Assembly (NCBI GenBank): GCA_943354045.1
Contig: CALRBF010000002.1
Span: forward strand, 60,726-124,725
Origin: Parcubacteria group bacterium
GTDB lineage: Bacteria; Patescibacteriota; Minisyncoccia; SW-4-49-11
Reading direction: 5' to 3'
DNA: 64,000 nt
The translations under genes and the position numbers were made by a program. The notes under the pieces were generated by a model that was not told the DNA's origin, searched no databases, and was given only the letters and a program-made list of their open reading frames with translations. Of this stretch, positions 7,201-46,200 are shown in pieces (position 1 is the first letter of the stretch; each line of letters starts with the position of its first letter).

Positions 7201-7626
7201 ATGCCTCAAATATTCCTCGCCAAAACCGAACCCTCAACTTTTTCTATTGATGATTTTGAAAAAGAACATATTACTCTTTGGGATGGGGTACATAATTATC
7301 AGGCTATTAATGTGATTAAAACTTGGCAAGTCGGAGATTATGTCTTAATTTATCATTCAGTCAAAGAACGCCGTATTGTTGGGATTGCTAAAGTAATAGA
7401 AGAGCCCTATCTAAATCTAGCCGATAGTCGCTTTAGTTGGGCTGCAAAATTAGAGTTTGTAACCAGATTCACCTCTGAGGAACAAATTAGCCTCGATACT
7501 ATCAAACAATCCCATCTTTTTGATGATTTTCTTTTAGTAAAGCATAGTCGCCTCTCCGTGATGCCTTGTCCAGATGATTTTGTTATTTGGCTACAAGAGC
7601 AAATACCTCGCATTATCCTCAACTAA
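7201..7626 (+). CDS. EVE (PUA-like) domain protein
   Basis: KTEPSTFSIDDFEKEHITLWDGVHNYQAINVIKTWQVGDYVLIYHS matches the EVE/thymocyte-nuclear-protein-like fold signature. Confidence 0.75.
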   Translation: MPQIFLAKTEPSTFSIDDFEKEHITLWDGVHNYQAINVIKTWQVGDYVLIYHSVKERRIVGIAKVIEEPYLNLADSRFSWAAKLEFVTRFTSEEQISLDTIKQSHLFDDFLLVKHSRLSVMPCPDDFVIWLQEQIPRIILN

Positions 7627-7627
7627 T

Positions 7628-8353
7628 ATGGATAATTTAATTCATGAAATAGTTCTCAAAAGTCAAGATTTGGAGCCAAAATTACAGGCTCAATTACTGA
7701 GTTTAGAGGCCTCCACTATATCCCTACCGAATAAGTCAAAAGACATATCTATATTAGATATGATTAATCAAATTCAGTATATTAACCCCAAGCTCACCAT
7801 TATCCCCTATTATTCCCTCAAATTTCATCAAAAGAAAACTCTTGATGAGACAGCGCAAGAATTTTTATCCTTATTAAAGCAATTAATACCTCTGCATATA
7901 TCTGAAATATTACTTATTAGTGGGGTACCAAAATCAAAATATACCACTCTTGATGTATTGTCATCTATACAAACCCATTATCAGGATACATATTCTCGTA
8001 TTGCTATTGCCTATAATCCATTCCTCTTAGATGAAGAATTAGAGCAAGAAAACAATCTCCTTACAAATAAAATTAAAACTGGACTTATATCTAGCGTATA
8101 TTTACAAATCGGTATAGATATACCGACTATACAAAAGGCTGTCGCATTCATACAATCCTTACAAGCAGATATTACGATATATATTAGCCTTATGAATCCT
8201 ACTCCCCTTCGCTTAGCTCAATTCAAATATCGCCCTTGGAAAGGGGTTATGGTATCTCAAGAATATTTAGCCTCTTCTCAAAGAGCACAAGAAATAAATC
8301 AAAATTTATATCAGCTAGCTAAAGAACTCAATATTGGAATTGTTCAAGGCTAA
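7628..8353 (+). CDS. Hypothetical protein (possible TIM-barrel; weak MetF-like pattern only)
   Basis: ORF-track start at 7574 overlaps the EVE gene; the ATG at 7628 (MDNLIHEIV...) is more plausible. No confident family assignment. Confidence 0.35.
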   Translation: MDNLIHEIVLKSQDLEPKLQAQLLSLEASTISLPNKSKDISILDMINQIQYINPKLTIIPYYSLKFHQKKTLDETAQEFLSLLKQLIPLHISEILLISGVPKSKYTTLDVLSSIQTHYQDTYSRIAIAYNPFLLDEELEQENNLLTNKIKTGLISSVYLQIGIDIPTIQKAVAFIQSLQADITIYISLMNPTPLRLAQFKYRPWKGVMVSQEYLASSQRAQEINQNLYQLAKELNIGIVQG

Positions 8354-8357
8354 TACC

Positions 8358-8783
8358 TTATACTTGATCCAAATATTCTCCATATCCTTCACGCTCCATA
8401 TCTTCTTTTGGGATAAAGCGTAGAGATGCTGAGTTGAGACAATATCTCTTGCCTCCTTTATCTTTTGGACCATCATCGAATACATGCCCGAGATGAGAAT
8501 TAGCTCCTTTGGATCTTACCTCAATTCTTGTTTGGAATAATTTAGTATCTTTTTTAGTAATAATTACATCATCTTTAATTGGTTTCGTATAAGATGGCCA
8601 GCCAGTACCTGAATCATATTTATCCCGAGAAGAGAATAAAGGCTCTCCAGAGACAATATCTACATAAATACCATCTCTTTTATTATTATAATATTCATTC
8701 TCAAATGGAGCTTCCGTCCCATCCTCTTGCGTAACCGTATATTGTATAGGGGTTAATTTTGCTTTCAAATCATCTGATGACAT
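8358..8783 (-). CDS. msrB: Peptide-methionine (R)-S-oxide reductase MsrB
   Basis: SelR signature [38 protein letters not shown] with CxxC...CxxC zinc site. Confidence 0.9.
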
Positions 8784-10182: not shown

Positions 10183-10896
10183 CTATAATGGAACTTCTAT
10201 TAATATAAACTCAGCATTTTGAATTGCCTTAATATGAATTCCAGTATCAATATCCCATATACCAATTGCATCTCTTGTATGTAATTCTTGATTATTTACC
10301 TTAATTACACCCGATATCACAAAAATATATATTCCATTTCCTGATTTTTTGAGAGTATATTCTAATTGTTTATACTCCTCTACATAAGCACGTTGAAACC
10401 AAGCATCCTGATACACTCCAATACCTTCTTCTCCCCTATCTATTGGGGATATAATTTGATGAAAAGCATTGGGCTTATCATATATATCAAAATATCTCTG
10501 CTCATAACGTGGCACTATATTCATTTTATTTGGGAGAACCCAAATTTGGAGTAAAGTTACAGCCTCATCACTATGAGCATTGAATTCACTATGGAATACT
10601 CCACTACCCGCACTCATAACCTGTATATCTCCAGGCTTTGATACGGCAATATTACCCATATTATCTTTATGCTCTAATCCCCCTGACAAAGGTATCGTAA
10701 TAATCTCCATATTATTATGGGGATGAGCTCCAAATCCCTTCCCTCCTGCTATACTATCATCATTGAGCACGCGCAAAGCCCCAAAACCCATACGATTTTC
10801 GTCGTAATATTCTGCAAAGCTAAAACTATAATGAGTTTTGAGCCAATCATAATCAGCTTTTCCCCGGGAATCAGATGTATATACTAGTGATTTCAT
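10183..10896 (-). CDS. Pirin-family cupin protein
   Basis: GFGAHPHNNMEIITIPLSGGLEHKD...GSGVFHSEFN. The start is chosen at MKSLVYTSDSRGKADYDW (10896), matching the pirin N-terminus, rather than the ORF-track 10941. Confidence 0.8.
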   Translation of the reverse strand: MKSLVYTSDSRGKADYDWLKTHYSFSFAEYYDENRMGFGALRVLNDDSIAGGKGFGAHPHNNMEIITIPLSGGLEHKDNMGNIAVSKPGDIQVMSAGSGVFHSEFNAHSDEAVTLLQIWVLPNKMNIVPRYEQRYFDIYDKPNAFHQIISPIDRGEEGIGVYQDAWFQRAYVEEYKQLEYTLKKSGNGIYIFVISGVIKVNNQELHTRDAIGIWDIDTGIHIKAIQNAEFILIEVPL

Positions 10897-14761: not shown

Positions 14762-14847
14762 CGGAGAGTAAGAGATTCGAACTCTTGATACCTTTCGGTA
14801 TACACGCTTTCCAAGCGTGCGCACTAGACCAACTATGCGAACTCTCC
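14762..14847 (-). tRNA. tRNA-Ser (anticodon GGA), class II with long variable arm; CCA not encoded
   Basis: Manual fold. Acceptor GGAGAGT/ACTCTCC 7 bp, D-stem GCA/TGC. Anticodon stem CACGC/GCGTG with loop TTGGAAA. Variable arm ATACC-GAAA-GGTAT. T-arm AAGAG-TTCGAAT-CTCTT, discriminator G. Confidence 0.85.
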
Positions 14848-21919: not shown

Positions 21920-23068
21920 ATGCACATTCACAAACTCATGGCCACTCAAAATGTTCTAACAAGACTGAAGTCCATCTCTGGGCTGTCACTCCGAAGCATC
22001 TTGATATTCTGTTTCTTTGGCTCCACCGTATTCATCACTATCTTAATGGTCTTCTTGATCAAAAGCGTAGGTGGTAATTTCCTTGAAGTACTAATAACTT
22101 TTCTGGTCACACCCATTGCATGGATAGCACTATTAGCACGTAGATTCATAGGGCTGGACCAGACCAATGGTTCACAAGGTGCTATTCTAGAATTTCTTGG
22201 GAAACAACCAGATCCCGCAAAATATGAGTTAAGACTAATACCCATACCCAGTGGTAAATTCAGAAGAGAACTCCCTCTGGATGGTTTTTGGGAAGGATTA
22301 TTAAGGCCGCGTGTCGTACAAGGATGGTATATATACATAAAAGGATTACATACAAGAGCCTGTTTAATTGATATTACTCAAAGGACAATAGAGTATACAA
22401 CCCCCAAAGATGGTTTGATTGATATACCAGAGGAAAGAGGTGGGGGATCTATTGCGATAAAGAAAGCTATAATACCATATTGGGTAACAAATCCGGTCAA
22501 GGCATTCTACAATGTTCTTGCATCAGAAAGTGATAAAGATCCCAATAAAGCTGGAGAACCTGTAAATGGGTATATATTTGAGTTAGAAAATTACATTAGG
22601 ATATCAATTGCGAAAGCAGTCTCGCTGAGTGACCTCGAATTAGATGAGTTATTAACGAGGGCTCATGCACTTGGTCCAGACATAACAAAAATATTAAGGG
22701 AAAAATTGGAAGAAAATGATATTGGAGTAGGTATTGGAACAGTAGACTCTCCTGATGCAACCCCCTCTGATAAATATCTTGATGATAGGGAACTAACTGC
22801 AAGTAGAAGAAAAGAGGAAGAAGCTAGACTAGTTGAATATGAGGCCCTACAAAAAAGGATATTCCTCTTGATGGGATTAGATGAACATGGTCAGAGAGAT
22901 CCAAATAGAGTCCCTGATAATGCAACGATGACTCTAGATCAAATTCTACAAGATAGATATGTGATGCAGATAGCAGAAAAAGCAGGTCCCATCTCAATTA
23001 ATTCCCTAGGAGGAAATTTTAATGACATTGTAAAAGGAATAATGACTAATATCCCGCCACAAACATAA
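21920..23068 (+). CDS. Hypothetical membrane-anchored protein (382 aa), higher-GC islet
   Basis: N-terminal TM helices then a soluble domain. GC about 42%. No family recognised. Confidence 0.45.
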   Translation: MHIHKLMATQNVLTRLKSISGLSLRSILIFCFFGSTVFITILMVFLIKSVGGNFLEVLITFLVTPIAWIALLARRFIGLDQTNGSQGAILEFLGKQPDPAKYELRLIPIPSGKFRRELPLDGFWEGLLRPRVVQGWYIYIKGLHTRACLIDITQRTIEYTTPKDGLIDIPEERGGGSIAIKKAIIPYWVTNPVKAFYNVLASESDKDPNKAGEPVNGYIFELENYIRISIAKAVSLSDLELDELLTRAHALGPDITKILREKLEENDIGVGIGTVDSPDATPSDKYLDDRELTASRRKEEEARLVEYEALQKRIFLLMGLDEHGQRDPNRVPDNATMTLDQILQDRYVMQIAEKAGPISINSLGGNFNDIVKGIMTNIPPQT

Positions 23069-23088
23069 TTACCTCAGGCCTAACAAAG

Positions 23089-23119
23089 GTCATTCTCAAC
23101 CAGCTCTCCCAAGAGCTGG
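23089..23119 (+). terminator. Intrinsic terminator
   Basis: accagctct-ccca-agagctggt followed by T8. Confidence 0.7.
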
Positions 23120-23159
23120 TCTTTTTTTTGTCTATATCTATTGACTTTTTAATCTAAAT

Positions 23160-23957
23160 ATGCTAATGTCTGAGAGACCCTCATTGGAGAAATCCATGTC
23201 TTTAGCAAGTGTTATCATTTCTGCTCTGATCATTTTCATCGTCCTCATGGCATTTTCTTTCTCAAAGAATCTACCAGCGAATATCAGAAATTCATCAGGT
23301 GGAGCTTCCACCCCTCCAAGCCCTTCTTCGGCACCATCCTCCTCCCCTGCTCCGGCAAGTGGTGGGAGTGGATGGCATATCCCAAGTTGGCTAGGACCTC
23401 TATTCTTGACCATAGCTGGACTATGGTTGATTCTAAAAGTCTTAGCCTTCAAGGGTGCTCCTGACAATTTGGAAGCGGTTCTTGCTGTTATCATAGCATT
23501 AGCTGGAGCAATTCTGCTCAAAGATGGGAAGAGATTTGCTGGATTCTTTCTTTCAGGCCTCATTATTGTACTGGTACTATTCCCAGGGATAATGACCTGG
23601 CTTCAAGGAGTTCGCCAATCTCAGATTAACCCCCCAGGGGAAATGGCTCCCATCGTTATCAATCGCGATGGTGAGTACGATCTCCCAGCACGCCCCCTCA
23701 AGGTATGCTTTACACGAACCGGAGATACAGCTAATCTCCTGGTGAATAAGGTTGATATCGCAGGAGTTATCTATGAGCAAAGTGAAGAAGGTTGTAAAGA
23801 TATTTCAGCAAAAGGGAAAGTATTTATATCCCTTTTATCAGGAAAACCCTACTCGGAACAAGTTAAGTCTCAGATTGGGATGACGGATGTGGATAATAAT
23901 TATGAGTATTACAAAAAAATAGGTTTTGGAGACTATCCCATAATAAAAGCTCGTTGA
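23160..23957 (+). CDS. Hypothetical membrane protein with Ser/Pro-rich linker (265 aa), highest-GC segment of window (~47%)
   Basis: TM-SGGASTPPSPSSAPSSSPAPASGG-TM-TM topology. The antisense ORF 23138-23563 was judged spurious. Confidence 0.45.
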   Translation: MLMSERPSLEKSMSLASVIISALIIFIVLMAFSFSKNLPANIRNSSGGASTPPSPSSAPSSSPAPASGGSGWHIPSWLGPLFLTIAGLWLILKVLAFKGAPDNLEAVLAVIIALAGAILLKDGKRFAGFFLSGLIIVLVLFPGIMTWLQGVRQSQINPPGEMAPIVINRDGEYDLPARPLKVCFTRTGDTANLLVNKVDIAGVIYEQSEEGCKDISAKGKVFISLLSGKPYSEQVKSQIGMTDVDNNYEYYKKIGFGDYPIIKAR

Positions 23958-23971
23958 GCTTTTACATACAG

Positions 23972-24017: not shown

Positions 24018-24773
24018 TTATACTAAGGCTGAGATAATATATTGGGTTATTAGGAAAGCCCCCATAATTATCATAAGTCCCACAACTGCATTCCTAATTC
24101 CATCCAAGGCCTGACCTACTTCTCCTGGATTAGAACTTGTCATATATTTAAATCCTGACATAACTAGAATAGCCACAGTAATAGTTCCTAATATTCCTAA
24201 CAGAGCATTAATAATACCCGCTATAAGGTCTGGGATACTATTGAACTTAATAGGATTAGTGAATCCTACACTTTGTGGAGCTGATGCATCAGATGTGTTA
24301 CCCCCGGAACCATTTGGAACTGTAGCAGAACCATCAGGAGCTCCTCCTCCATTTGGAACTGTAGTAGATCCATCGGGTGCTGTAGCTACTCCAGGATTTC
24401 CTGGTGGTTTTTTACTAATGTCACATCTCATAGGGTTACCTGTACTACCCACACTACAAGTTCCTAATTGTCCTCCTGACTTACAGGCATCTCCTGATTT
24501 ATAACAATCCTCCCAACCATTTGCGGTAGTATTACAGTACAGGGTATCACCCCCTGTAGCTCCTCTTCTATCACAAAACCCATTTGCAGTAGATGTTTGT
24601 ACAGGCCCCCCTGGTGCTGTAGGGGTTTTTGACTGATAAGTACAGGTAGCTCCATTTGATTTACCAGAACAAGCCGTATTTTGTGCCGCTGTATTATCTA
24701 CGGTCTGAGCAAAGCTATTCTGAGGGATAATTATTCCTATACCTAATAAAAGTGAAAAGATAATATATTTCAT
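24018..24773 (-). CDS. Type IV secretion system pilin-like protein (VirB2/TrbC-like, PF18895 style) with Cys-rich N-terminal ectodomain
   Basis: Signal peptide. Eleven Cys in the mature N-terminal part, then a Gly/Pro-rich linker. C-terminal pilin module IPDLIAGIINALLGILGTITVAILVMSGFKYMTSSNPGEVGQ..AVVGLMIIMGAFLITQYI: hydrophobic helix, G.xYxTSxxNP, hydrophobic helix. Confidence 0.65.
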   Translation of the reverse strand: MKYIIFSLLLGIGIIIPQNSFAQTVDNTAAQNTACSGKSNGATCTYQSKTPTAPGGPVQTSTANGFCDRRGATGGDTLYCNTTANGWEDCYKSGDACKSGGQLGTCSVGSTGNPMRCDISKKPPGNPGVATAPDGSTTVPNGGGAPDGSATVPNGSGGNTSDASAPQSVGFTNPIKFNSIPDLIAGIINALLGILGTITVAILVMSGFKYMTSSNPGEVGQALDGIRNAVVGLMIIMGAFLITQYIISALV

Positions 24774-24774
24774 A

Positions 24775-25188
24775 CTAATTTACATTTAATGGGATATTAA
24801 TACTAGCGGTTTCATCTGGAGGGAATACAAATCCTAATACGGCATTGGATGCGACAAAGGCAAAGAATATAATAAGTAGACCTATGATTGCATTTACCAT
24901 TCTTTTTTGAGCTGATTCAGCCTGCTTCTCATCTCCTCCTGCGGTTGCATATTCAAATCCTGCATATAGGAATATAATAAATATCACAATTCCAATAAAT
25001 CCTAATATCCACCTGATAATAATCGATACTGTCTCTATGAGGCTTGGTCCCTCAGCTATTCCAGTATTAATTGGGATTGTCCCAGGATCAGGGAGAGTAG
25101 CATCAGGGGCTCTCTGAGCTAAGGAAATATTAGAGCCCAATAAAAATCCTCCCATTAATAAAGCTATTATAATCAATAAGACTCTCAT
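24775..25188 (-). CDS. T4SS pilin-like protein (short paralog)
   Basis: Signal peptide plus IIRWILGFIGIVIFIIFLYAGFEYATAGGDEKQAESAQKRMVNAIIGLLIIFFAFVASNAVLGFVF. Confidence 0.65.
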   Translation of the reverse strand: MRVLLIIIALLMGGFLLGSNISLAQRAPDATLPDPGTIPINTGIAEGPSLIETVSIIIRWILGFIGIVIFIIFLYAGFEYATAGGDEKQAESAQKRMVNAIIGLLIIFFAFVASNAVLGFVFPPDETASINIPLNVN

Positions 25189-25282
25189 ATCTATTTTACT
25201 ATTCTATATATTACAAGTATATCAAGTATTCTATTATCTGACAAGAATACTATATTATTTGAATATGTATTCTCTAAACAAT

Positions 25283-25305
25283 AAAAAGGGATATAATCCC
25301 TTTTT
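25283..25305. terminator. Perfect palindromic hairpin aaaaagggat-ata-atccctttttt inside the pilin gene array (bidirectional intrinsic terminator)
   Basis: 10-bp stem flanked by A5/T5+ runs. Sits in the 144-nt gap after the 25333-25716 pilin. Confidence 0.6.
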
Positions 25306-25332
25306 ATTGTTTCATAGTATCTATCAATTTGA

Positions 25333-25716
25333 TTAATTTCCTGGGAATACGAATGACAATATTGCATTTGAAGCTACAAAGGCAAAGAATATAATAATAA
25401 GTCCAATTACAGCGTTAATCATTCGAGACTGTGCAGTTTTTGCTTTTCCTTCATCTCCACCAGCTGTTGCATATTCAAATCCTGCAAATAAGAAAATAAT
25501 GAATATTACGATTCCGATAAATCCTAATGCCCATTGAATAACTACTTGTACTGTAGCCACAAGGTCAGTAGATTGATAAGTACCAGCTACTTGAGGTATT
25601 TCACCTATAACTCTAGTATCTTTTACGGGAGTTGCAGCTCCAGCTAAAGTAGGTGCTAATAATAATACTGGTAATAATACTCTTGTTACTATTGATTTTA
25701 TCTTGGAGGTATTCAT
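25333..25716 (-). CDS. T4SS pilin-like protein (short paralog; likely the major expressed copy given the downstream terminator)
   Basis: C-terminal module about 80% identical to 24775-25188; the N-terminal mature region is divergent. Start MNTSKIKSIVTRVLLPVLLLAPTLAGAA chosen at 25716 (ORF-track 25767 adds 17 implausible residues). Confidence 0.6.
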   Translation of the reverse strand: MNTSKIKSIVTRVLLPVLLLAPTLAGAATPVKDTRVIGEIPQVAGTYQSTDLVATVQVVIQWALGFIGIVIFIIFLFAGFEYATAGGDEGKAKTAQSRMINAVIGLIIIFFAFVASNAILSFVFPGN

Positions 25717-25815
25717 AAGAATATCTATAATTATTAAATAATATGTCCTATAAGTACATATTATCATATAATATATACTTATGCAAGTAATAGCATTGTG
25801 GATAAGTATATTATA

Positions 25816-26154
25816 TTATAAGCCAAAGACAAATCCCAAGACTGCATTAGATACCACAAAGGCCAATCCTACGATAAAAACCCCTATTACTGCTGCTGTA
25901 ATTCTACTTATAGCTTCTTCGGTTTTTTTAGGATCTCCTCCTGCTGTTGCATATTGAAATCCTGAAAAGAGTATGAGAATAAATAATATTACCCCTATTA
26001 ACCCTAGGCTCCATCTTACAATAGTAGATACAAAGGTAAATATATCCCCTTGTTCTGTCACCCCAGTACCAGTAGGAATACCTAAAACGGGTGGCACAGA
26101 TTCCTGAGCTTTTGCTGTTGCTATGATAAAATTAGCTATAAGTTTTTCTAACAT
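25816..26154 (-). CDS. T4SS pilin-like protein (short paralog)
   Basis: IVRWSLGLIGVILFILILFSGFQYATAGGDPKKTEEAISRITAAVIGVFIVGLAFVVSNAVLGFVF. Start at 26154 (MLEKLIANFIIATAKAQ) avoids a 77-nt overlap with the upstream gene. Confidence 0.6.
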   Translation of the reverse strand: MLEKLIANFIIATAKAQESVPPVLGIPTGTGVTEQGDIFTFVSTIVRWSLGLIGVILFILILFSGFQYATAGGDPKKTEEAISRITAAVIGVFIVGLAFVVSNAVLGFVFGL

Positions 26155-26164
26155 ATATACGATA

Positions 26165-26812
26165 TTAAGACCCTGCTGCGAGCAAACCACTTGTGACAAA
26201 ATTAGTGATAAGGAATGCGCCCATGATAATAAGTAATCCAATCACGGCATTGGTAATAGCTCCTGTAGCAGCGGCTGTTTGACTAGCATTTCCAGAGGAT
26301 ATCATATAGAGATACCCTTGTAAAACTATGATTATAAAAAATACTGTTCCTAAAATTCCTAGTATCCAGCGTATAATATTAGCCACATATCCAATAAGTG
26401 TTCCCCCCGTATTAAGTCCTGATCCAGCATTTTTGAATTGATTCAAACCCTGGGATAGTCCAGTTGATCCACCACTTGTAGATGTTTCAGTTGGAGAATT
26501 TGGTTTCGTTGGGGTTTGTTTAGTATCTGTTGCAGGCTGTAATGTATTGGCTTTAGGTGCACATACAATTTCTGTTGCTTGATTCTGAATACATGCTTGT
26601 CCAGAACCACACTTAATAGAAGCATCTCCTGTACAAATACCCTTACTATCTGCTTGATTTGTTAAACATTTTGTAGCACCATCTACTGTTACACATACTT
26701 TTCCCGAGGTACAATCTAGTCCAGATCCACAGGCTGCTAAAGCATTATAGGTATTCCCCATAAATCCTATTACAAACAGAATTACTAAACTTGTTGATAA
26801 AATACATTTCAT
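26165..26812 (-). CDS. T4SS pilin-like protein with Cys-rich N-terminal ectodomain
   Basis: Signal peptide. Fourteen Cys (CGSGLDCTSGKVCVTVDGATKC...). Thr/Pro linker. Pilin module IIRWILGILGTVFFIIIVLQGYLYMISSGNASQ...AVIGLLIIMGAFLITNFV. Confidence 0.65.
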   Translation of the reverse strand: MKCILSTSLVILFVIGFMGNTYNALAACGSGLDCTSGKVCVTVDGATKCLTNQADSKGICTGDASIKCGSGQACIQNQATEIVCAPKANTLQPATDTKQTPTKPNSPTETSTSGGSTGLSQGLNQFKNAGSGLNTGGTLIGYVANIIRWILGILGTVFFIIIVLQGYLYMISSGNASQTAAATGAITNAVIGLLIIMGAFLITNFVTSGLLAAGS

Positions 26813-26842
26813 AATATCTATATTTAATTATTTTTAATTATA

Positions 26843-27949
26843 TCATCTTTTTCTTAATTTCCAAATAAATAATCCTAGTCCCCCAGCAAGAAATAGTATT
26901 CCTCCTATCAAAATAGCTATATTTCCGAATGTTTTAGATTTTGCTGGCTGTGTAGTTGTATTCGTATCAGGGGTAGGAGTATTGGTGGAGAGTAACACTG
27001 TTCCCTGCTCTTTTTTTGATAAATTATAAGTGGAGATTTGATTATTTTGATTAATCAATAGTTCATTTCCAGATTGTCCAATCGAATATATATCAGTAAC
27101 TATTGGATTTAATGATATATTTGATTGCTCCTGCCCTTGCAAATTATATTGTATCAAATTACCATTTGTAGTTAATACAGCTATCGTATCATTATTCAGT
27201 AATACAGCTTTCCTGTTACTCATATTAATACTACTTCCTACTTGATTACTACTCCAATCGAAAACTTTTATCTGACTATTATTATATTCCAAAAAATAAT
27301 TTAATTTTGGACTGGTTGAAATTTGATAATTACTACTTTTTTGGTATACAAAGTTTTTCTTATTACCAACAAGATACCCATCAACTAATGGGATTATTTG
27401 ATGGTCTTCATTTGCTATAATTTGTTTATTAATATCCACATTAGATGGTATATTAGAGTATAGAATATTAAATTTAGACAGATCATTGGTGGGAGCAACT
27501 GTGATATCTTTATTATTAAATACATATATAATTTCATTATCAGAATACCAGCCAACTAAATTAGTTTTATCATTTAGTTGTATTTTATTTTTTGTATTAA
27601 AATCATATACCCACCATTGATTATCGGGAGATTTTCTTGAACTATCAAAAAATGGTGCTTGATATTTTGGAAATGATATATTGGGAGGATAAAGTAACAT
27701 TTTAGATTGTTCAGGAGAAATTGATACTAAGTTAGTAGCAGAAGGTATTAAATCAAATATCTCTGACTTATCACCAGTAATAACATTTTGTTTCACAATA
27801 GCCCCTGCATATTGATCAAAATATAAAATTTCATTATTTACAGCAAAACTTGGATATAGGAAACTTGAGTATATACTGGTATCCGCATATACTGGAGAAA
27901 TAGAATAGAAAGATGCTATTAGTAAAAATAGACTTAAGATTTTATTCAT
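26843..27949 (-). CDS. Secreted N/Q/S-rich beta-propeller-like surface protein with C-terminal Thr/Pro stalk, TM anchor and KLRKR tail
   Basis: Signal peptide MNKILSLFLLIASFYSISPVYA (start 27949 preferred over 28042). Repeated aromatic-rich beta-strand segments. C-terminus TPTPDTNTTTQPAKSKTFGNIAILIGGILFLAGGLGLFIWKLRKR resembles a tripartite sorting signal but lacks LPXTG. Confidence 0.5.
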   Translation of the reverse strand: MNKILSLFLLIASFYSISPVYADTSIYSSFLYPSFAVNNEILYFDQYAGAIVKQNVITGDKSEIFDLIPSATNLVSISPEQSKMLLYPPNISFPKYQAPFFDSSRKSPDNQWWVYDFNTKNKIQLNDKTNLVGWYSDNEIIYVFNNKDITVAPTNDLSKFNILYSNIPSNVDINKQIIANEDHQIIPLVDGYLVGNKKNFVYQKSSNYQISTSPKLNYFLEYNNSQIKVFDWSSNQVGSSINMSNRKAVLLNNDTIAVLTTNGNLIQYNLQGQEQSNISLNPIVTDIYSIGQSGNELLINQNNQISTYNLSKKEQGTVLLSTNTPTPDTNTTTQPAKSKTFGNIAILIGGILFLAGGLGLFIWKLRKR

Positions 27950-27953
27950 ATTG

Positions 27954-29357
27954 TTATTTACATGTTTTAAATTTTTGATAGTTACTCCACACTCCATCAC
28001 AATAATTTCCTCCACAAGCTGATGAACCTGAACATGCCCCACAATAATCTCCTGCTACACAATCAGAACAAGCTCTGGACGAAAAATCTGAATATCCATT
28101 ACATTGACTAGAACATTTATTATATCGTTTTAAATGTTTCCCCATACATACAAGGGCATCTCTTCGATTTGTTCTACTTCCACTACATCCCAGCTCATTC
28201 CAGCTCGTTTGTAAAAATTGACCTGCTCCAGCTGCTCCAGATCCATTTTCATTTGGACAAGCATTAGGATTATTAAATGCTGCAGGACATTCTCTTTGCA
28301 TAATTCCAGCTAATAGTTCAGAAGGAACACCAGTCTGTAAACTAGCATTATTTAGATCAGCCTTAACCGAATCATTTAAACTTGCACAACTTATAGTTGA
28401 GGAGTTACTCCCTCCATTACCGAGCACACCTGATCCACCTCCATTTCCCCCATTATCATTAAAAGTGCTTGCAGTGTCACATTTTACCTCGAATACTTTA
28501 CCGGGTTGAAAAGTAAGTACCGCTGAGAAATTTTGTTCTTGGAAGCCAAGTCCTACTAATAAGAAACTGAATAGGAGAAAACTTGCCATTACGAGCAATA
28601 ATCCAATCACTGCATTGGTAATAATGCCATACCCCGTACTCACTCCCCCGGGATTACCAGCTGAAGTAAGTATATATACTCCACCAATTACAATACTTAA
28701 TACTGCTAGTGAAGCTAGTAGGCCCAAAGCAAAATTAAAGATGTCTCGAATTAAGATAAATATATCACAAATAGTACAATCTCTACTGGTACCACATTTA
28801 ACAAGTCCTGTTTCTGAATTGGTTGAGCTTCCGTTAGTTGTTCCAGCACCAGCATCACCTTCTCCAGGAATATTAGAACCAGTTGCACCCCCAGAGGTCC
28901 CAGCTTGGCTGCCTCCACCAGCATTAGATCCAGATGGTGAATTAGTGGTACCACCAATAGTTGCATTTTCTTTTATACATTTAAAATCACTACATTTAAG
29001 ACCTGCTACACATTCATTTCCATTCCCAGAACAAGATTGCCCCTCTGTTTTATTGCCTCTTGGACTGGAACAAACCTGATTAATACAGGCTAATCCATTT
29101 TGACAAGTATCACCTGAGCAGGATGATCCTAAGCTAGTACGACAAGTTAATCCTAAACCTGGATTATTTTTATCTTTCACTTGGCATTTTCCATTTAAAC
29201 GAGAAATCCCATTTTGAAATGTACAATTTTGCTCTAATGCTGTTGCCCCAGCACTACAGGATCCATCAGCTGTCTGAGCATAAGTAGATTTAATACTAAA
29301 AAATGAAGCTATTAGGAAGATTATACTAAAGACTATACCAAACTTTATATATTTCAT
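27954..29357 (-). CDS. Composite protein: Cys-rich ectodomain + T4SS pilin module + lytic transglycosylase (SLT/VirB1-like) domain + Cys-rich tail
   Basis: Signal peptide. Cys-rich EGF-like N-terminal region. Pilin module ICDIFILIRDIFNFALGLLASLAVLSIVIGGVYILTSAGNPGG...AVIGLLLVMASFLLFSFLL. Then ELLAGIMQRECPAAF...GAAGAGQFLQTSW, which resembles SLT-family E..S / GLMQ / AxGxMQ motifs. The C-terminal 80 aa hold about 14 Cys. Confidence 0.55.
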   Translation of the reverse strand: MKYIKFGIVFSIIFLIASFFSIKSTYAQTADGSCSAGATALEQNCTFQNGISRLNGKCQVKDKNNPGLGLTCRTSLGSSCSGDTCQNGLACINQVCSSPRGNKTEGQSCSGNGNECVAGLKCSDFKCIKENATIGGTTNSPSGSNAGGGSQAGTSGGATGSNIPGEGDAGAGTTNGSSTNSETGLVKCGTSRDCTICDIFILIRDIFNFALGLLASLAVLSIVIGGVYILTSAGNPGGVSTGYGIITNAVIGLLLVMASFLLFSFLLVGLGFQEQNFSAVLTFQPGKVFEVKCDTASTFNDNGGNGGGSGVLGNGGSNSSTISCASLNDSVKADLNNASLQTGVPSELLAGIMQRECPAAFNNPNACPNENGSGAAGAGQFLQTSWNELGCSGSRTNRRDALVCMGKHLKRYNKCSSQCNGYSDFSSRACSDCVAGDYCGACSGSSACGGNYCDGVWSNYQKFKTCK

Positions 29358-30700
29358 TTTTTTACATTATCAGCTAATGTTTGTATTTCTGATTCAGCCT
29401 GAGTGATAGCCTTACTATAGTCCAGTAGTCCTGAATTAACTGCATTAATAGCCTCAATAAATATTTTATCTACTGAATTATTATCTGGTTGTCTCCAAGT
29501 TTTGGCTTGTAAAATTTGTTTTACAAATACGCCATAATCACTATCTTGAGATTGAGTTTCTACCAAATCTCTTCTAGCTGTTGGGCGCTTGGTTTTCAAG
29601 AAATACTCTTGAGCATTTTCTTTTTCAGTAGCTGATTTGAGGAATGCAAAAGATTCTTTAGGATATTTGGATTGACCGCTGACTCCATATCCCCAATAAT
29701 TTGCATAGTTAGCAAGTCCAGAATCTAGTGATACTTGAGGAAGAGGTGCTACCGCAAAATTAAGTCTTGGAGCTTTTGCTTTAATTGCTTCTATTTGATA
29801 AGAATATCCAAATATCATAGCTACTTCCCTCTCATAAAAAGCATCTATTGAATTATTGAGAGTTGAATTCCATGTATATACTGATTTTCGAGGATTAGCA
29901 AAATCAGTATAATAGGTTAAAGCTAATGTTCCTGGAGAGATATTTTGTCCATTGATATTTTTTCCTTGTGAGAATGTAATTCTACTAGAATCTTTTGGAT
30001 CAGTAAATTGAGCACCTGTTTGTAACATTAATGACATTAATATATCAGGGGAACGATTTATATTATCCCCAGTACCAAGTGCAACCCCTGCCTGTTTAAT
30101 ATTACCAAATTGATCAATTTTAGTTAATTCTGGGACAATTTTTTGTAATTCTTCCCAAGTTGCTGGTGGATTTGCAATTCCGGCATCATTAAATGCATCT
30201 TTATTATATAATAATGCTAAGGTATCGGTATATAGGGGAAATCCATATATTTTACCCCCGTCAATAAAGTCTTGATTGACCACATCTACAAAACGATCTT
30301 GATAATCTTTAAGCGTCATAATTTCTTCTGGCATTGAAGCTAATTTATTCTTATGCTTCCCGAGCCAAGTATGTTCTATTGCAAATATATCTGGTCCTCG
30401 TCCCTCAGCTAAAGCATTCACTAATTCTGTTTCATAATCTTGTGGCTTGAATTTACGATATTCTATACTTACATTAGGATATGTTTTACGAAAATCACTT
30501 CCTAATTTTGTCATTGTCTCACTTTCATCCCATACGCCCCATACTACCAGATTAGCTTTTTGTACTTGTTTTCTACCTCCAGCTTGGAACCCAAGAGCAT
30601 TCCCTAACATCAAAATAACAATGGCCAATATAGCCACTCCAGCAATAATAATTAATTTACGATTTTTGGTAAATGAATCAAGAGAATTATTCCCTGCCAT
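29354..30700 (-). CDS. ABC-type extracellular solute-binding protein (family 1, sugar-type), membrane-anchored, with no cognate permease/ATPase genes nearby
   Basis: N-terminal TM anchor then an SBP_bac_1-like fold (GPDIFAIEHTWLG, GFPLYTDTLALLYNKDAF, ATWEEL). The stop overlaps the start of the pilin-SLT gene by 4 nt. Confidence 0.7.
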   Translation of the reverse strand: MAGNNSLDSFTKNRKLIIIAGVAILAIVILMLGNALGFQAGGRKQVQKANLVVWGVWDESETMTKLGSDFRKTYPNVSIEYRKFKPQDYETELVNALAEGRGPDIFAIEHTWLGKHKNKLASMPEEIMTLKDYQDRFVDVVNQDFIDGGKIYGFPLYTDTLALLYNKDAFNDAGIANPPATWEELQKIVPELTKIDQFGNIKQAGVALGTGDNINRSPDILMSLMLQTGAQFTDPKDSSRITFSQGKNINGQNISPGTLALTYYTDFANPRKSVYTWNSTLNNSIDAFYEREVAMIFGYSYQIEAIKAKAPRLNFAVAPLPQVSLDSGLANYANYWGYGVSGQSKYPKESFAFLKSATEKENAQEYFLKTKRPTARRDLVETQSQDSDYGVFVKQILQAKTWRQPDNNSVDKIFIEAINAVNSGLLDYSKAITQAESEIQTLADNVKK

Positions 30701-30702
30701 AT

Positions 30703-31245
30703 TTATGATTTTTTAAATATATACCCATAATGATATTTACCTGCATCAATTTTATGATCAATTTCAAAACCATTATTTTGTATCAGAGAAACTAATTCTC
30801 TCTCTGGAATTCTTGATGATTTGAGAGGTCCTATTGGGCTTGCTATATCCCATTCTATTATGACCAATTTCCCTTTTTCTTTTAATATTTTATAAGCTTC
30901 TTTGAGCAAATGTTTTTTATCATTTACTTGAAAAAGGATATTATGTATCATAACTCTATCTACTGATTCTTTTGGTAAAGTAGAACCACTATCAGTCTCG
31001 AGATTAGTCAAAATCAATTCAATATTGGTAATACCTTGAATTTTGTATTTACTTCTGAGAGACTGATGTGCTGATTCCATTACATCAATTGCAAATACTT
31101 TCCCTGTTGGCTGAATATATTGAGCAATAGCAATAGAAAAGTCTCCAGCCCCCGATCCAAAATCAGCAATTTTCATTCCAATTTCTAAGTCAAATTGCTT
31201 TACTATTTCACGCGGTGATAGAAATCGAGTAGTGGTTTCTAACAT
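30703..31245 (-). CDS. Class I SAM-dependent methyltransferase
   Basis: Motif I IADFGSGAGDFSIAIAQ; acidic motif II FAIDVMES; motif III VDRVMIHNILFQV. First gene of the pilin operon. Confidence 0.8.
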   Translation of the reverse strand: MLETTTRFLSPREIVKQFDLEIGMKIADFGSGAGDFSIAIAQYIQPTGKVFAIDVMESAHQSLRSKYKIQGITNIELILTNLETDSGSTLPKESVDRVMIHNILFQVNDKKHLLKEAYKILKEKGKLVIIEWDIASPIGPLKSSRIPERELVSLIQNNGFEIDHKIDAGKYHYGYIFKKS

Positions 31246-43284: not shown

Positions 43285-46200
43285 TTATTTGTTAAGTACT
43301 TGTCGCACAGCTTCTTTAATTCCTATCATTTTACTTGGCTGTAAGAATGTAGAAAGTGGCTGTAATCTAGTTCCACCATTTGGCAGTCTAATTTGATTCC
43401 AGAATCCAGATGTTGGAATATTCCTATTACCACTAAATTCCGCCCAGTTAAACTTTGATACAAATTCTTCTGGAGATTTGATATCCTTAAATCTTAGATA
43501 TTCTTTGAATAATTGAATATTCTGATTATTAATATCTGGATTATTTACAATTGCATCATAAAGCCACTGTTTACCTGCATCAGTTTGTACATAAGTATCT
43601 AATACCTGCTTACCTAAATTAGAGTCATAAGGCAAGTTCCCTAATTCATTAGCGATATATCTCTGTACTACACCTAAAGAGTTTGTTCCTTTAGTTAATT
43701 CCACCATATCTGGAGCATCTTCAAATCTAGCTAAAATAGTCTGATTCAAAACTTTTCTTAACTCATCAGAGTTTATGTTATTAACTACTTCAGACATTTG
43801 CTCTGGACTTAAGTTTGCAAATCCATTAGATAAAAATGTAGATCCTTCACCTGTATTGATTATAGAGTTATAGATTACTTCTCTTCCATAATCATCTGTA
43901 AAATATGATTGTATAATTTCTTTAGCTTGTAAATCTGTAAGATTTTGCTTACCTAATATTTCAGATAAATCTCTAGTAAATTCACTAGTTGCAACTGGTG
44001 GAACTTCTGGAGATGGAGTTGCTACTGGAGCTTCGGCTGCTGGTGGAACTATAGGCTCTGATCCTAAAGATTCAGTGCCTACTGGTGATGATGCTGGTGT
44101 TTCGGAATATACTGGATCAATAGTAGGAGCTTCTGCTGGAGATGGAGCAACATATTCTGCTGGTTGAAATGCCTCAAGATGATCTATGTTAAAATGACTA
44201 ATTCCCTCTAATTGACCTGGACCTAGATATCTTGAAACTTCATATAATTGCCCTTTTGAAAGGCTGGCCATTTCATTAGCATTATCTATTCCCCATTGAG
44301 CTAATAATCCTCTTCCCCCTTCGGTACCTTGCGCTAATTGAAACATCGTATTCTGACCTACTCCCGACTGCACATAATTTTCTAAGGCATGCTGTATTTG
44401 GTCTGGACTAGCATTTGGCCCTAATTGTTTAGCTATTTCTCCCCATAAAGTCTCACCTTTACTTAATTGAGATATATCTTGTAATTGTTCTGGGGATAGA
44501 TTTTGAGTAGCTGCTTTGGTAGCTTCAGTTGCAGCACCCGTACCTTCTGGAGTTGGAGAAATTGGTTCCACTTCAGGTTTTGAGGTAGCAGCAACTTGCT
44601 CTGGATTAAATACTCCTCCTGGTCGCATCATATCAACTGCTAATGAGGTCATAAGGCCTCCACCCACTGCTGTTCCTACTACATTGGCAATAGTTCTATT
44701 TCTTTGTTGCTTTTGTAATTCTGTAATACGTTTTTCTGATAAAGTAGTTAATAGTCTACTTGTATATTGTTGATTTTGTTCTGGAGAAGAGAATACAAAT
44801 TTCTCAGAAGCTCCTTGTATGGCGACTTCATTAGTAATATCTTCTGAGCTTATAATCTCATCTTTAGCTTTCAGGGTATTAGTTGAACTTGATTCTTGTT
44901 TTACTTGTTTTGCAATACTTTCACGCTGTACTCTACTACCCAACTCAGTTAATATAGCCTCATAAGCTGTTTGCTGTGATTCATTAGTAAATTTACCACC
45001 ATTAAGGCGATAATAGGCCTCAAGTGTACTAAGCTTTGTACTTAAATCAGCATCATTTGCATTATTAATATAATCATCTTTCAATGAATCTTCTACTAAT
45101 TTTGGTATAACTGCTTTAAATTTAATACCAAATCTGTTTATCTCTCCATCCTCCATCAGACCTACTAAAGTATTCCTTGAGCTAACTCCTGACATAACAC
45201 TTCCCAGAGATCTTCTTGTCATTTCTAAAGCTCCTGATACTGGTATCCCTGCTCCAGTCGAAGATAATAAAGCACCTGCAGCAAAAAGACCTATATTAGC
45301 TAACATCCATCGAGTTTTATTTTTAGTTGCCCAACCTAAGAACTTTTCTTTGGCACCATTAAACCTCTTCTCCCATTTACCTTGTAGCTCTTGGGACTGA
45401 TCTATCCTACTATCTCTCAAATTCTTAACCTCTTGTGTAAAGACTCTATGTATTTCTGACTCTAAACCTTGAGCTGCCATAATACCAATAACTTCCTCAA
45501 CTGTTTGATTATATTCTCCTCTTAGTCTTTCTAATTCTAATTTTGCACTCTCATCATTACGATTTCTATTATAAAATTCTTCAGCTCGGGCATAAGCTGT
45601 TCTCAAATCTGTGATATTAATTTTATATGATGAGTCTACATTTTTTTCAAAATCAGGTATTGATTTATATCCCACCGCCTCACTACCTGACAATGTAGAT
45701 AATGGGATGTTGGTATCATCTACAATAACTCCCTTTATAAATTCATTTTTACTAAGTGTACTGACAATAAAATCTGGAGTTTGTGGATTAAGTCCTGGCA
45801 ATACATAGCCTGTATAATGTAAGTCAGAATCTACTGCATCTAAATTAATATCTGTAAGTATATGAGCTGGTCGAGCTTTACCTATCAAATTTGCGACACT
45901 ATAAGTTCGATTTAATTCTATATTTTTACTATGATGTTTAATGGTAATAATATTTCCATTTTCATCAAATCCATATCCTTGTGCTTCTAGATAATCTTTT
46001 GTATTTTTTGCTTCTGGATGTGATAAATCTATATCTCTTTGTTGCGGAAGAGCAAAGATTTCTCCTCCCTTAATATGCGCAAGTTTATTCTGAGCTTCCC
46101 AAGCAGCTTGCTCAAATGCACGATATCTCTCATTTGTTGCCAGATCTCGAGTATGGAAAGGATGCTCTTGTGCAAATTGTTGATATGTAGCAATAGCTTG

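Follow-up and report, generated by a model that had tools for sequence, protein, structure and literature searches.

The window analyzed here, a stretch of 64,000 nucleotides from a freshwater member of the Paceibacteria (Patescibacteria/CPR, ultrasmall bacteria), carries on its minus strand, at 24018–29357, six genes that encode the two-helix hairpin of the T4SS_pilin family (PF18895), here named A to F, with a non-pilin gene, X, between A and B. Three tandem pilin open reading frames had been described in the initial annotation; these are present on the minus strand and correspond to C, D and E, the short members of the array, but the count was too low, as six genes share the module. The genes and associated elements are listed below in the direction of transcription.

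27954–29357, minus strand: gene A, 467 aa, in which a signal peptide and a Cys-rich extracellular domain precede the PF18895 hairpin (aa 202–266), with a putative lysozyme/SLT-like domain at the C-terminus.
26843–27949, minus strand: gene X, ~368 aa when counted from ATG 27949, a non-pilin protein whose ectodomain varies, whereas its C-terminal transmembrane anchor is conserved; a signal peptide is present.
26165–26812, minus strand: gene B, 215 aa, its signal peptide and Cys-rich extracellular domain followed by the PF18895 hairpin (E = 2e-7, 31.4 bits).
25816–26154, minus strand: gene C, 112 aa (PF18895, E = 2.3e-11, 44.1 bits), starting 10 nt past the end of B.
25797–25805, minus strand: DnaA-box 9-mer TTATCCACA, a perfect 9/9 match, situated 10 nt ahead of the −35 element of the D promoter.
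25758–25786, minus strand: putative D promoter, TTGCAT, 17 nt, TG-n-TAATAT, followed by a conserved 5′ UTR of ~35 nt.
25333–25716, minus strand: gene D, 127 aa (PF18895, E = 1.2e-8, 35.3 bits), predicted to be the array’s one monocistronic gene.
25276–25312, no strand assigned: hairpin T1, a perfect stem of 17 bp capped by a 3-nt loop; its 5′ side carries an A-tract and its 3′ side a T-tract.
25216–25244, minus strand: putative E–F promoter, TTGTCA, 17 nt, TG-n-TATACT, 10/12 with the TG in a consensus scan.
24775–25188, minus strand: gene E, 137 aa (PF18895, E = 4.2e-8, 33.6 bits), with a variable C-terminal tail predicted to be extracellular.
24018–24773, minus strand: gene F, 251 aa, its signal peptide and Cys-rich extracellular domain followed by the PF18895 hairpin (E = 1.6e-9, 38.2 bits), starting 1 nt past the E stop codon.
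23944–23964, no strand assigned: hairpin T2, terminator-like, TAAAAGCTCGTTGAGCTTTTA, a perfect 9-bp stem between the convergent genes F and 23160–23957 (plus strand).

The array lies in a chromosomal setting with housekeeping genes on its flanks. Its spacers measure 4 nt (A–X), 30 nt (X–B), 10 nt (B–C) and 1 nt (E–F), and the ATG starts at 25716 (D) and 26154 (C) are backed by ortholog alignments. Synteny of the array extends to at least nine related freshwater Paceibacteria genomes, the nearest loci being those of Paceibacteria/Parcubacteria MAGs at 95–96% identity. All six pilin-type genes occur in identical order in 7/7 full-length related loci, and four further loci, truncated by contig ends, hold a partial array with the order unchanged.

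Five of the six genes (B–F) exceed the PF18895 gathering threshold of 26.6 bits, and A lies marginally under it (E = 9.9e-6, 26.0 bits). B–F are also matched by NCBIfam NF045849 (E 1e-5 to 3e-9), the Mbov_0395 family of the mycoplasma ICE ‘pilin-like conjugal transfer protein’, whose 80-residue two-helix module they cover nearly whole-length, with scores of 25–37 bits that stay under the model’s 40-bit cut-off; the mycoplasma gene, a component of monoderm conjugation machinery, is single-copy on a mobile element, whereas the present genes form a chromosomal array. The AF2 model of D (pLDDT 74.7) comprises a signal helix (residues 3–24), a lower-confidence coil (25–51) and two helices (52–84 and 89–123). 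This prediction and the hydropathy of A–F agree on a leader, presumably cleaved, followed by a two-helix hairpin with a short polar loop, although the hydropathy profile of C contains no strongly hydrophobic N-terminal segment. These sequence matches support placing A–F in the VirB2-like T4SS_pilin family PF18895 as pilin-like paralogs; the initial annotation had already called the short genes pilins.

In canonical conjugative pilins (VirB2 of Agrobacterium, TrbC of RP4 and TraA of F), a leader peptide precedes a pair of hydrophobic helices that a short basic loop connects, and both termini lie outside the cell. The proteins of the array share this overall plan, but no sequence similarity to solved pilins was detected, fold searches were not informative, and the host here is monoderm. 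None of the six genes reaches the 27.9-bit threshold of PF04956 (TrbC/VirB2), which matches only C (13.6 bits, E = 0.08), and a D-ortholog profile searched against the PDB retrieved no solved VirB2, TraA or TrbC pilin at E values up to 10. Two other pilin classes were ruled out: type IV pilins, given that the prepilin-peptidase motif is absent from A–F and that the conserved hydrophobic helices are C-terminal, and sortase pilins, given that no LPXTG occurs in A–F or X.

C, D and E belong to a kind of array that is already in the literature, to which the locus adds a few new details. Quinonero-Coronel et al. 2025 (PMC12102498) report 441 arrays of 2–11 VirB2-like genes in Patescibacteria, with pilin genes near virB4 in 1135/1948 assemblies, and propose that the Patescibacteria T4SS descends from monoderm conjugation machinery. 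Under the definition of a Patescibacteria VirB2 array (at least two PF18895/PF04956 genes, in tandem or one non-pilin gene apart), the present locus is an array of six genes with one interloper. The published arrays are likewise defined by PF18895, tandem, chromosomal, interspersed with a non-pilin gene and found in CPR hosts, and the full-length identity of 19–54% among the members here compares with published values that average 25% and reach at most 54% (PMC12102498). The copy number of six is also that of Southlakia epibionticum ML1, whose array is described in a review as six structurally conserved, sequence-divergent pilins (PMC12857230) and is essential within its T4SS cluster (Wang et al. 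2023, PMC10633639). In Saccharibacteria, a T4SS of this kind is essential to epibiotic growth. Unlike the S. epibionticum array, the present locus lies at least 25–35 kb from any virB4: among the ~50 ORFs scanned in the 64-kb window, we found no VirB4, VirD4, VirB3, VirB6, VirB8 or other T4SS machinery, and the link to type IV secretion therefore rests on family naming and the literature. For T4SS-associated pilin arrays of Patescibacteria, essential in the one species tested according to the cited work, the locus adds evolutionary constraint.

Two further comparisons place the locus among known systems. Three of its six members carry Cys-rich domains, one of them also a putative lysozyme-like extracellular domain, which sets it apart from the published arrays; ortholog-level conservation, a terminator/promoter layout and a DnaA box are not described for Patescibacteria arrays in the cited sections. 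Divergent pilin copies side by side are also known from the tandem VirB2 paralogs in the T4SSs of intracellular Alphaproteobacteria such as Anaplasma, Bartonella and Rickettsia (cited as precedent in PMC12102498; see also PMC2653234 and PMC3556328). These alphaproteobacterial copies are canonical TrbC/VirB2 (PF04956) proteins of diderm hosts with a complete VirB system, and the role proposed for them is surface variation or host range, whereas here PF04956 does not recognize the proteins above threshold and C, D and E give no evidence of diversification.

It is very unlikely, to a degree that makes the idea close to negligible, that the genes encode small membrane toxins, holins or bacteriocin-type peptides, or are spurious ORFs, unrelated to secretion. 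The products are indeed small and very hydrophobic with two transmembrane segments, and the window holds no machinery genes, but such a reading has to be set against significant Pfam and NCBIfam matches to conjugation-type pilin-like families, a family of 31,167 cluster representatives, strong purifying selection with conserved synteny, and the essential role of the equivalent S. epibionticum array (PMC10633639).

The short paralogs share an ungapped module of 76 aa, with amino-acid identities of 74% (E–D), 54% (E–C) and 51% (D–C); the C-terminal similarity pointed out earlier is real, but its range is 51–74% and not 60–80%. At the nucleotide level, the modules are 58–71% identical and appear as a direct-repeat family of 212 nt at 24821/25343/25823 (identities 73% and 67%). 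The common string previously placed at 24945 and 25470 exists within an exact 21-mer (24944–24964 and 25466–25486, encoding AGFEYA), and starts at 24947 and 25469. The ~20–25 residues after the signal peptide had been called unrelated. Between paralogs they are unalignable beyond shuffled sequence (p = 0.63, 0.046 and 0.40), but an I/V-P-x3-G motif is retained in the N-terminal regions of all three proteins.

Synonymous sites are saturated between the paralogs (pS 0.60–0.71), module dN/dS is 0.08–0.29, and the nearest neighbors of every copy are its own orthologs. Saturation and grouping by ortholog indicate that C, D and E are ancient and held under purifying selection, and gene conversion among them has left no sign. 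The identity between D and E is also about the same within a genome (0.718) as between genomes (0.697), which, together with the ortholog neighborhoods, argues against concerted evolution or cassette exchange; no homogenization within genomes is seen, and one possible hybrid is discussed below. A pilE/pilS-type antigenic-variation system was rejected on similar grounds, all copies being complete ORFs with modules 58–71% identical in nucleotides, pS of 0.60–0.71 and within-genome identity that is not raised.

Conservation within the ortholog groups differs by region. The C linker, AQESxPPVLGxPTGTGVTEQG, is 79% identical among orthologs against 71% for the C module, with dN/dS ≤0.10, and C orthologs from 10 genomes are 111–112 aa long from a homologous ATG. 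The D module is the most conserved (81% among orthologs), and of 134 D homologs found, more than 100 are full-length at 51–100% identity. Linker identity among orthologs is 51% for D and 56% for E (dN/dS 0–0.77), and in E the module is 74% and the C-terminal tail 23% identical. None of the regional dN/dS estimates, for linkers, modules or the C-terminal tail, exceeds 1.

These data bear on the view, taken in the initial annotation, that the proteins are antigenically variable or diversifying pilins, with N-termini under positive selection and perhaps exchanged, with strong expression of the upstream copies, and with downstream copies expressed only by read-through of the hairpin. Several observations fit it: the paralog linkers are unalignable; the D and E linkers and the E tail evolve faster than the modules (51%, 56% and 23% vs 74–81%), with dN/dS up to 0.69–0.94 over very few sites; between strains, the array has diverged beyond its flanks (83–89% vs 92–96% nucleotide identity) and its alleles are mosaic; the metagenomic protein P0026 is a hybrid of the N-terminal half of D and the C-terminal half of E; and PMC12102498 speculates that arrays aid adaptation to host strains. 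We nevertheless consider it quite improbable. The C linker is conserved above its own module, dN/dS nowhere exceeds 1, the copies always cluster by ortholog at saturated synonymous distances, and each is a complete gene with its own export signal and no silent cassette. P0026, moreover, comes from a single 731-bp contig with its junction exactly at the shared 21-mer, and may therefore be an assembly chimera. On the sequence comparisons, C, D and E are old, separately conserved paralogs without sign of rapid antigenic variation. The word ‘tips’ in the initial annotation also fits poorly with VirB2/TraA-type pili, which carry the termini of their subunits on the side of the pilus, not at the tip.

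The hairpin between D and E, first described as a 10-bp palindrome at 25283–25305 following the middle copy, is real and, read along the transcript, begins 20 nt past the D stop codon, but is larger, with 17 bp at 25276–25312. This element, T1, is the longest perfect hairpin of the window. Its core, GGGAU-UAU-AUCCC, is followed by UUUUUAUUGUUU, and the stem reaches 17 bp once the A-tract is counted; the predicted RNA folds with a ΔG of −20.5 kcal/mol (z = −4.9), and 0/200 shuffles fold equally well. A hairpin with an A-tract, stem and T-tract follows the D stop codon in 9/9 related loci, 14–27 nt away in the seven loci resolved by the perfect-stem finder, and its stems differ (GGGAT/ATCCC vs GAGAG/CTCTC). 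For this comparison, each locus was folded separately and pairs were counted outward from the loop; MAFFT with RNAalifold predicted 4 pairs, as loop indels misaligned the arms.

T1 has the features of an intrinsic terminator, namely a stable stem-loop, a U-tract directly after it and a position downstream of a stop codon. Since its position is kept while the stems change, it is very probably an intrinsic (rho-independent) terminator, in agreement with the function first assigned to it, and with an A-tract on one side and a T-tract on the other it could act bidirectionally. A simple consensus scan missed T1, because the U-tract forms part of the stem. T2, with its perfect 9-bp stem, is one of only nine such hairpins in the window. 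An Rfam scan of the window and of loci L006 and L010 gave no match in the array or in GC-rich insertions.

Upstream of D, the pattern TTGCAw/TTGACT-17-TAtAAT is conserved in 10/10 genomes. The consensus scan did not list this site, because its −35 element in the window matches 3/6 consensus positions, and its assignment as a putative promoter rests on conservation. An extended −10 element of the TGATAyAAT type precedes the E start codon by ~35 nt and is also conserved in 10/10 genomes; in L010, it is kept despite a GC-rich, highly structured insertion that brings the D–E gap to 404 nt vs 144 nt. Across the window, the consensus scan found 32 sites vs 29.8 expected from shuffles, which is no enrichment. 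The earlier suggestion that downstream copies depend on read-through does not hold well against this layout: the conserved TTGTCA-17-TATACT promoter (25244–25216) lies between the terminator and E, so that E–F would be transcribed independently of read-through, a further point against the variable-pilin view.

The array would accordingly be read as three transcription units. In the first, genes for a methyltransferase and a solute-binding protein are tightly packed with A, X, B and C; the second would consist of D alone, served by a conserved promoter of its own and closed by a strong intrinsic terminator that is likewise conserved; in the third, transcription would restart at the conserved E–F promoter and end at T2. 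A monocistronic D with its own promoter and a strong terminator would fit a ‘major’ subunit needed in excess. Codon usage does not discriminate here: no other pilin gene reaches the CAI of D (0.66), yet this value is close to the housekeeping average and gives D no clear expression advantage.

The real hypervariability of the array is found in A, B and F, the long paralogs, and there in the fused extracellular domains. Orthologs of B range from 142 to 279 aa, with the Cys-rich module present, expanded or absent, and those of F from 146 to ~300 aa, with the N-terminal domain gained, lost or re-tiled. Gene A encodes 30 Cys, and the sequence compared with the catalytic Glu motif of SLT/GH23 domains reads ...MQRE-C...FNNPNA...GAAGAGQFLQ. 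Searched alone, its C-terminal domain matches SLT_2 at E = 0.063, under threshold; the positional ortholog in L008 matches SLT_3 (PF18896) at E = 3e-18. A homolog search with the A domain gave a single match, belonging to the other domain type, and the AF2 model was therefore built on a two-sequence alignment and is of low confidence (pLDDT 55). Its best Foldseek matches are nearly all GH23 chitinase, Slt, MltF/MltE and g-type lysozyme (E 0.025–2, probability up to 1.0).

Gene X has hydrophobic segments at aa 4–22 and 340–365, and its sole Pfam match is weak (PQQ_2, E = 0.008). The anchor GNIAILIGGI.FLAGGLGLFIWKLRKR is conserved across loci, and the ectodomain takes two forms, a long one in the window, L003 and L004 and a short one in L002 and L006–L011. 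A toxin–immunity relationship between the A C-terminus and X was considered and rejected: the long X ectodomain occurs with A type 1 in 3/3 cases, but the short X occurs with three A types, and since the A C-terminus and the X ectodomain are adjacent, their co-replacement is expected anyway.

In the predicted topology, an export signal at the N-terminus of each protein is followed by a linker or domain outside the cell and then by a transmembrane two-helix hairpin, whose short loop bears the motif GGD-x-K..A..R and would face the cytoplasm. The six paralogs may co-assemble into one pilus-like or envelope structure tied to a type IV secretion system. Ancient copies conserved one-to-one and apparently transcribed differently argue for a heteromer with one over-produced subunit, against interchangeable antigenic variants. 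We judge it probable, though well short of certain, that C, D and E act within a conserved cluster of six PF18895 proteins, as ancient, non-interchangeable paralogs of a co-assembling T4SS-associated structure that is expressed from three transcription units.

A structure without a filament is a credible but less probable alternative, in which the hairpins would be subunits or anchors of a membrane hetero-oligomer (a ring, channel or platform) that displays extracellular domains, with C, D and E as filler or core. The hairpin is fused N-terminally to extracellular domains in A, B and F, and in A also C-terminally. The family further holds many single polypeptides with 2–11 tandem hairpin modules behind one signal peptide (e.g., P0122, P0124 and P0139), which a fixed lateral assembly would accommodate more readily, although such fusions are topologically compatible with a pilus lattice too, because both termini face outward. 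Weak Foldseek matches include the hairpins of ATP-synthase c-rings, but these are not significant (E 5.7–8.2). The window contains no T4SS genes, and the cited portions of the literature on these arrays contain no pilus observations in Patescibacteria; on the other side, the family-level and structure-based annotation of the S. epibionticum proteins is that of VirB2-like pilins within a T4SS cluster (PMC10633639, PMC12857230).

The DnaA-box 9-mer upstream of D is the longest invariant block of the intergenic alignment. The match is exact both here and across L001–L011, being inverted at the same place in L008, and in the window TTATCCACA occurs in 6 exact copies vs 0.82 expected, a 7-fold over-representation. 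Pilin arrays of other CPR classes (L014 and L018–L028) show no enrichment of DnaA boxes, and the association with the array is limited to this Paceibacteria clade and L012. Together, the promoter, DnaA box and terminator around D provide a testable regulatory handle.

A more speculative model, which we regard as unlikely, treats the array as a regulated modular surface apparatus instead of a collection of redundant pilins, in which DnaA would switch D through TTATCCACA, the hairpin of the long paralogs would carry exchangeable modules, and assembly would proceed side by side in a fixed order. If so, the switch would couple the output of the pilus or envelope structure to the replication or cell-cycle state, for example in attached dividing vs free cells of an ultrasmall epibiont. 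The hairpin would then display Cys-rich, adhesin-like modules and alternative lysozyme-like hydrolases, cassette-swapped between nearly identical strains, and the hydrolase, borne on a pilin, could act as a functional analogue of VirB1 or serve to breach the host cell wall. The many natural poly-hairpin fusions suggest such a side-by-side assembly of the paralogs in fixed order.

The minus strand carries every gene of the flagged interval: seven in transcription order, from A to F with the non-pilin surface-protein gene X between A and B, separated by 4 nt (A–X), 30 nt (X–B), 10 nt (B–C), 99 nt (C–D), 144 nt (D–E) and 1 nt (E–F). A–F all matched the Pfam family T4SS_pilin (PF18895), five above the gathering cut-off and A at 26.0 bits versus 26.6. 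The array therefore has six members rather than the three tandem paralogs of the initial annotation, although those three (C, D and E) are real. B–F also matched NF045849 of NCBIfam (Mbov_0395 family pilin-like conjugal transfer protein, from mycoplasma ICEs), with E-values from 1e-5 to 3e-9 and scores below the model cut-off. The features of the array are as follows.

29357–27954, minus: gene A, 467 aa
about 27949–26843, minus: gene X, non-pilin
26812–26165, minus: gene B, 215 aa
26154–25816, minus: gene C, 112 aa, one of the three copies first noticed
25797–25805, minus: canonical DnaA-box 9-mer TTATCCACA, 10 nt 5′ of the −35 element of D
25716–25333, minus: gene D, 127 aa, one of the three copies first noticed
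25276–25312: hairpin, putative intrinsic terminator 3′ of D
25244–25216, minus: putative E–F promoter, TTGTCA-17-TATACT with TG
25188–24775, minus: gene E, 137 aa, one of the three copies first noticed
24773–24018, minus: gene F, 251 aa
23944–23964: second hairpin, after F, putative end of the E–F unit

Pilin arrays as such are already published. PMC12102498 describes 441 arrays of 2–11 VirB2-like genes (PF18895/PF04956) in 383 Patescibacteria assemblies, with a mean within-array identity of 25% and a maximum of 54%; with six copies, 19–54% identity and one intervening gene, the present array belongs to the kind described there. For S. epibionticum, the predicted pilin subunits of the T4SS cluster are reported as essential by Tn-seq in PMC10633639, and PMC12857230 sums up its array as six VirB2-like pilins that diverge in sequence but keep their structure, with a pilus-like conduit offered as speculation. 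The searches did not place the array proteins in the canonical TrbC/VirB2 family: PF04956 was hit in Pfam by C only (E = 0.08), sequence searches gave no match to solved pilins, and fold searches were non-specific. The array proteins lack a type IV prepilin motif and an LPXTG signal, and among about 50 ORFs scanned in the 64-kb window there is no homolog of VirB4, VirD4 or VirB6. Housekeeping genes (rpsL, rpsG, fusA) flank the array on one side, and genes for a solute-binding protein and a methyltransferase, with gyrA, gatB, metG, greA and priA, on the other.

Searching the protein collection with D recovered 134 homologs, many aligned over the full length at 51–100% identity; the few with a source name were labelled Parcubacteria. 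Scanning GTDB species genomes yielded 27 loci, the closest in Paceibacteria MAGs with 95–96% protein identity, several from Lake Mendota. When a module HMM was run on all ORFs of these loci, the order A-(X)-B-C-D-E-F was common to L002–L011, and more distant CPR lineages also carried PF18895 arrays (3–7 copies in Saccharibacteria loci, 10 in a Magasanikbacteria locus). At E ≤ 1e-3, 31,167 of 1.84 billion cluster representatives matched the family profile. Many are poly-pilins, in which one signal peptide precedes 2–11 tandem units of linker plus two-helix hairpin, as in P0122 (552 aa), P0124 (386 aa), P0139 (820 aa) and P0229 (1382 aa); this suggests that modules lie next to one another in the assembled structure.

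A repeat search of the window recovered a 212-nt family in three copies (73% and 67% identity), and C, D and E share an ungapped 76-aa C-terminal module, a two-helix hairpin, with pairwise identities of 74%, 54% and 51% in amino acids and 71%, 63% and 58% in nucleotides. The shared C-terminus had thus been correctly recognized, but at 51–74% its amino acid identity is somewhat lower than the 60–80% estimated; the nucleotide string quoted as similar falls within an exact 21-mer found at 24944 and 25466. The linkers that join the predicted signal peptide to the module, described as unrelated, do align between paralogs only at the level of shuffled sequence (p = 0.63, 0.046 and 0.40), but all three keep an I/V-P-x3-G motif.

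Among the paralogs of the window, synonymous sites of the module are saturated (pS 0.60–0.71), with dN/dS of 0.08–0.29. Across ten genomes, the nearest neighbours of every C, D and E sequence were its own orthologs, and D–E identity was essentially equal within (0.718) and between genomes (0.697 ± 0.034); the duplications are therefore older than the divergence of these genomes, and C, D and E show no concerted evolution. Linker and module identity among orthologs were 79% and 71% for C (linker dN/dS at or below 0.10), 51% and 81% for D (0.34–0.69), and 56% and 74% for E (0–0.77), whose short C-terminal tail is 23% identical (dN/dS 0.24–0.94). No regional dN/dS exceeded 1 except in one signal-peptide comparison (1.10), few sites lying behind these numbers. 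The linkers are paralog-specific signatures, under relaxed constraint in D and E, and not hypervariable tips.

The array nevertheless evolves faster than its flanks, with nucleotide identity to L002, L003 and L010 of 83–89% versus 92–96%. Alleles are reassorted between strains, window C and E being closest to L010 and window D to L002 and L003; these mosaics reflect homologous exchange between strains, not between paralogs. One 731-bp contig (ENA sample ERZ21986211) encodes P0026, a hybrid that follows a D ortholog over its N-terminal half and an E ortholog over its C-terminal half and tail. The switch falls exactly at AGFEYATAGGD, where D and E have 21 identical nucleotides in a row; P0026 is either a real D–E deletion-fusion or an assembly chimera.

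Variability of the array sits in A, B, F and X rather than in C, D and E. Orthologs of A all retain the hairpin and the linker NFSAV..FEVKCD..FNDxG, and most a Cys-rich domain, but for the C-terminal domain (27954–28520 in the window) at least four alternatives exist among genomes with 92–96% identity in the flanks (L002–L011). These versions matched SLT_3 (PF18896, E = 3e-18) in L008, SLT (E = 0.025) in the L002 type and SLT_2 (E = 0.063) in the window type; for the last, nearly all top Foldseek matches of a low-confidence model (pLDDT 55) were lysozyme-type (GH23 chitinase, Slt, MltF, MltE, MltC and g-type lysozymes; E 0.025–2). The X ectodomain is long or short among L002–L011 on a conserved stalk and transmembrane anchor, and both regions look like products of cassette exchange with breakpoints inside the two genes. 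Cys-rich modules, without a Pfam match, are gained, lost, duplicated or re-tiled among close relatives in B (142 to 279 aa; window N-terminus 26430–26750) and F (146 to about 300 aa; 24290–24700), and in some relatives are replaced by low-complexity Gly/Ser/Thr/Pro linkers.

The palindrome after D, first described as 10 bp at 25283–25305, is perfect as stated but larger, a 17-bp inverted repeat (ΔG −20.5 kcal/mol, z −4.9; none of 200 shuffles as stable) and the longest of nine perfect hairpins with stems of at least 9 bp in the window. All related loci have an A-tract/stem/T-tract hairpin after the D stop codon, beginning 14–27 nt past it in the seven resolved by the perfect-stem finder. Since stems differ among loci (GGGAT/ATCCC versus GAGAG(N)/CTCTC), pairing has been kept through changes on both sides, and this covariation at a conserved position argues for the proposed terminator. 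The loop (25293–25295) reads TAT on the coding strand in the window and L003 versus ATA in L002, on identical stems, which looks like a flip of the palindrome centre.

In all ten genomes the C–D spacer contains TTGCAw-17-TAtAAT, a putative D promoter, followed by a conserved 5′ UTR. Past the hairpin, every genome has an extended −10 element of the type TGATAyAAT some 35 nt ahead of the E start codon. E–F thus appears independent of the read-through on which downstream copies had been supposed to depend. D is apparently the only monocistronic gene, and its own putative promoter and strong terminator form a layout that would suit a subunit required in stoichiometric excess; its CAI (0.66) exceeds those of the other five but is unremarkable. 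The initial annotation had observed largely correctly and called the terminator well, but its evolutionary and regulatory interpretation was mostly wrong: antigenic variation of N-termini with recombining copies and read-through expression is very improbable given the conserved orthologs, saturated dS between paralogs, absence of conversion between copies and conserved internal promoter. In L006 (10390–10911) and L010 (10387–10792), GC-rich, extremely structured insertions occupy the AT-rich spacer between D terminator and E promoter, giving D–E gaps of 520 and 404 nt versus 144 nt; folded over their whole length, these two gaps reach about −161 and −168 kcal/mol. The insertions had no Rfam match and may represent a mobile element or an undescribed RNA.

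The array probably encodes a T4SS-related pilus-like or envelope structure in which A–F co-assemble, with D as the major subunit, C and E as specialised short subunits, and A, B and F as carriers that hold extracellular modules on a hairpin anchor. The main rival, in which the proteins form a membrane hetero-oligomer or display platform without a filament, seems rather unlikely to us; it would accommodate the fusion of hairpins to extracellular domains and the natural single chains of 2–11 tandem hairpins (P0122, P0124, P0139). The N-termini of C and its orthologs (MLEKLIANFIIATAKAQ) are short and weakly hydrophobic; by a simple hydropathy test they do not qualify as signal peptides, unlike those of A, B, D, E and F. 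Insertion of C into the membrane may thus not involve leader cleavage.

The DnaA box TTATCCACA, a candidate regulatory motif, is exact at the same intergenic position in the window and L001–L011 (inverted in L008), and every other invariant block in the C–D spacer alignment is shorter; the window holds six exact copies versus 0.82 expected. The more distant L012 has two (10477–10485 and 10496–10504) between two of its pilin genes, and the pilin arrays examined from other CPR classes have none. T4SS clusters of Paceibacteria often adjoin dnaA and oriC, according to PMC12102498.

The start of A and the end of the solute-binding protein gene (29354–30700, minus; SBP_bac_1, E = 2e-31) share 4 nt, and 2 nt separate that gene from the methyltransferase gene (30703–31245, minus) upstream of it. 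In the distant locus L012, too, an SBP-like gene (7317–8648) lies ahead of the array. Neither an ABC permease gene nor an ATPase gene turned up in the window, and the solute-binding protein may be an orphan co-transcribed with the array. Of the two plus-strand genes (21920–23957) between the array and rpsL, one weakly matches SPFH/Band 7 and the other encodes a membrane protein of 265 aa. Their composition is atypical (GC3 0.30–0.37 versus about 0.18–0.25; CAI 0.45–0.47) and neither gave a blastn alignment to L002 or L010, while L003 aligns at their outer ends only and both flanks align; they form a second variable segment adjoining the array, possibly an acquired one. Rfam identified a bacterial RNase P class A RNA (49138–49462, minus, 142.5 bits), one tRNA (14762–14847, minus) and no other known RNA family in the window. 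A 1450-aa ORF (43285–47637, minus) without a Pfam match at E ≤ 0.01 adjoins glycosyltransferase and sugar-transferase genes and may encode a large surface protein.
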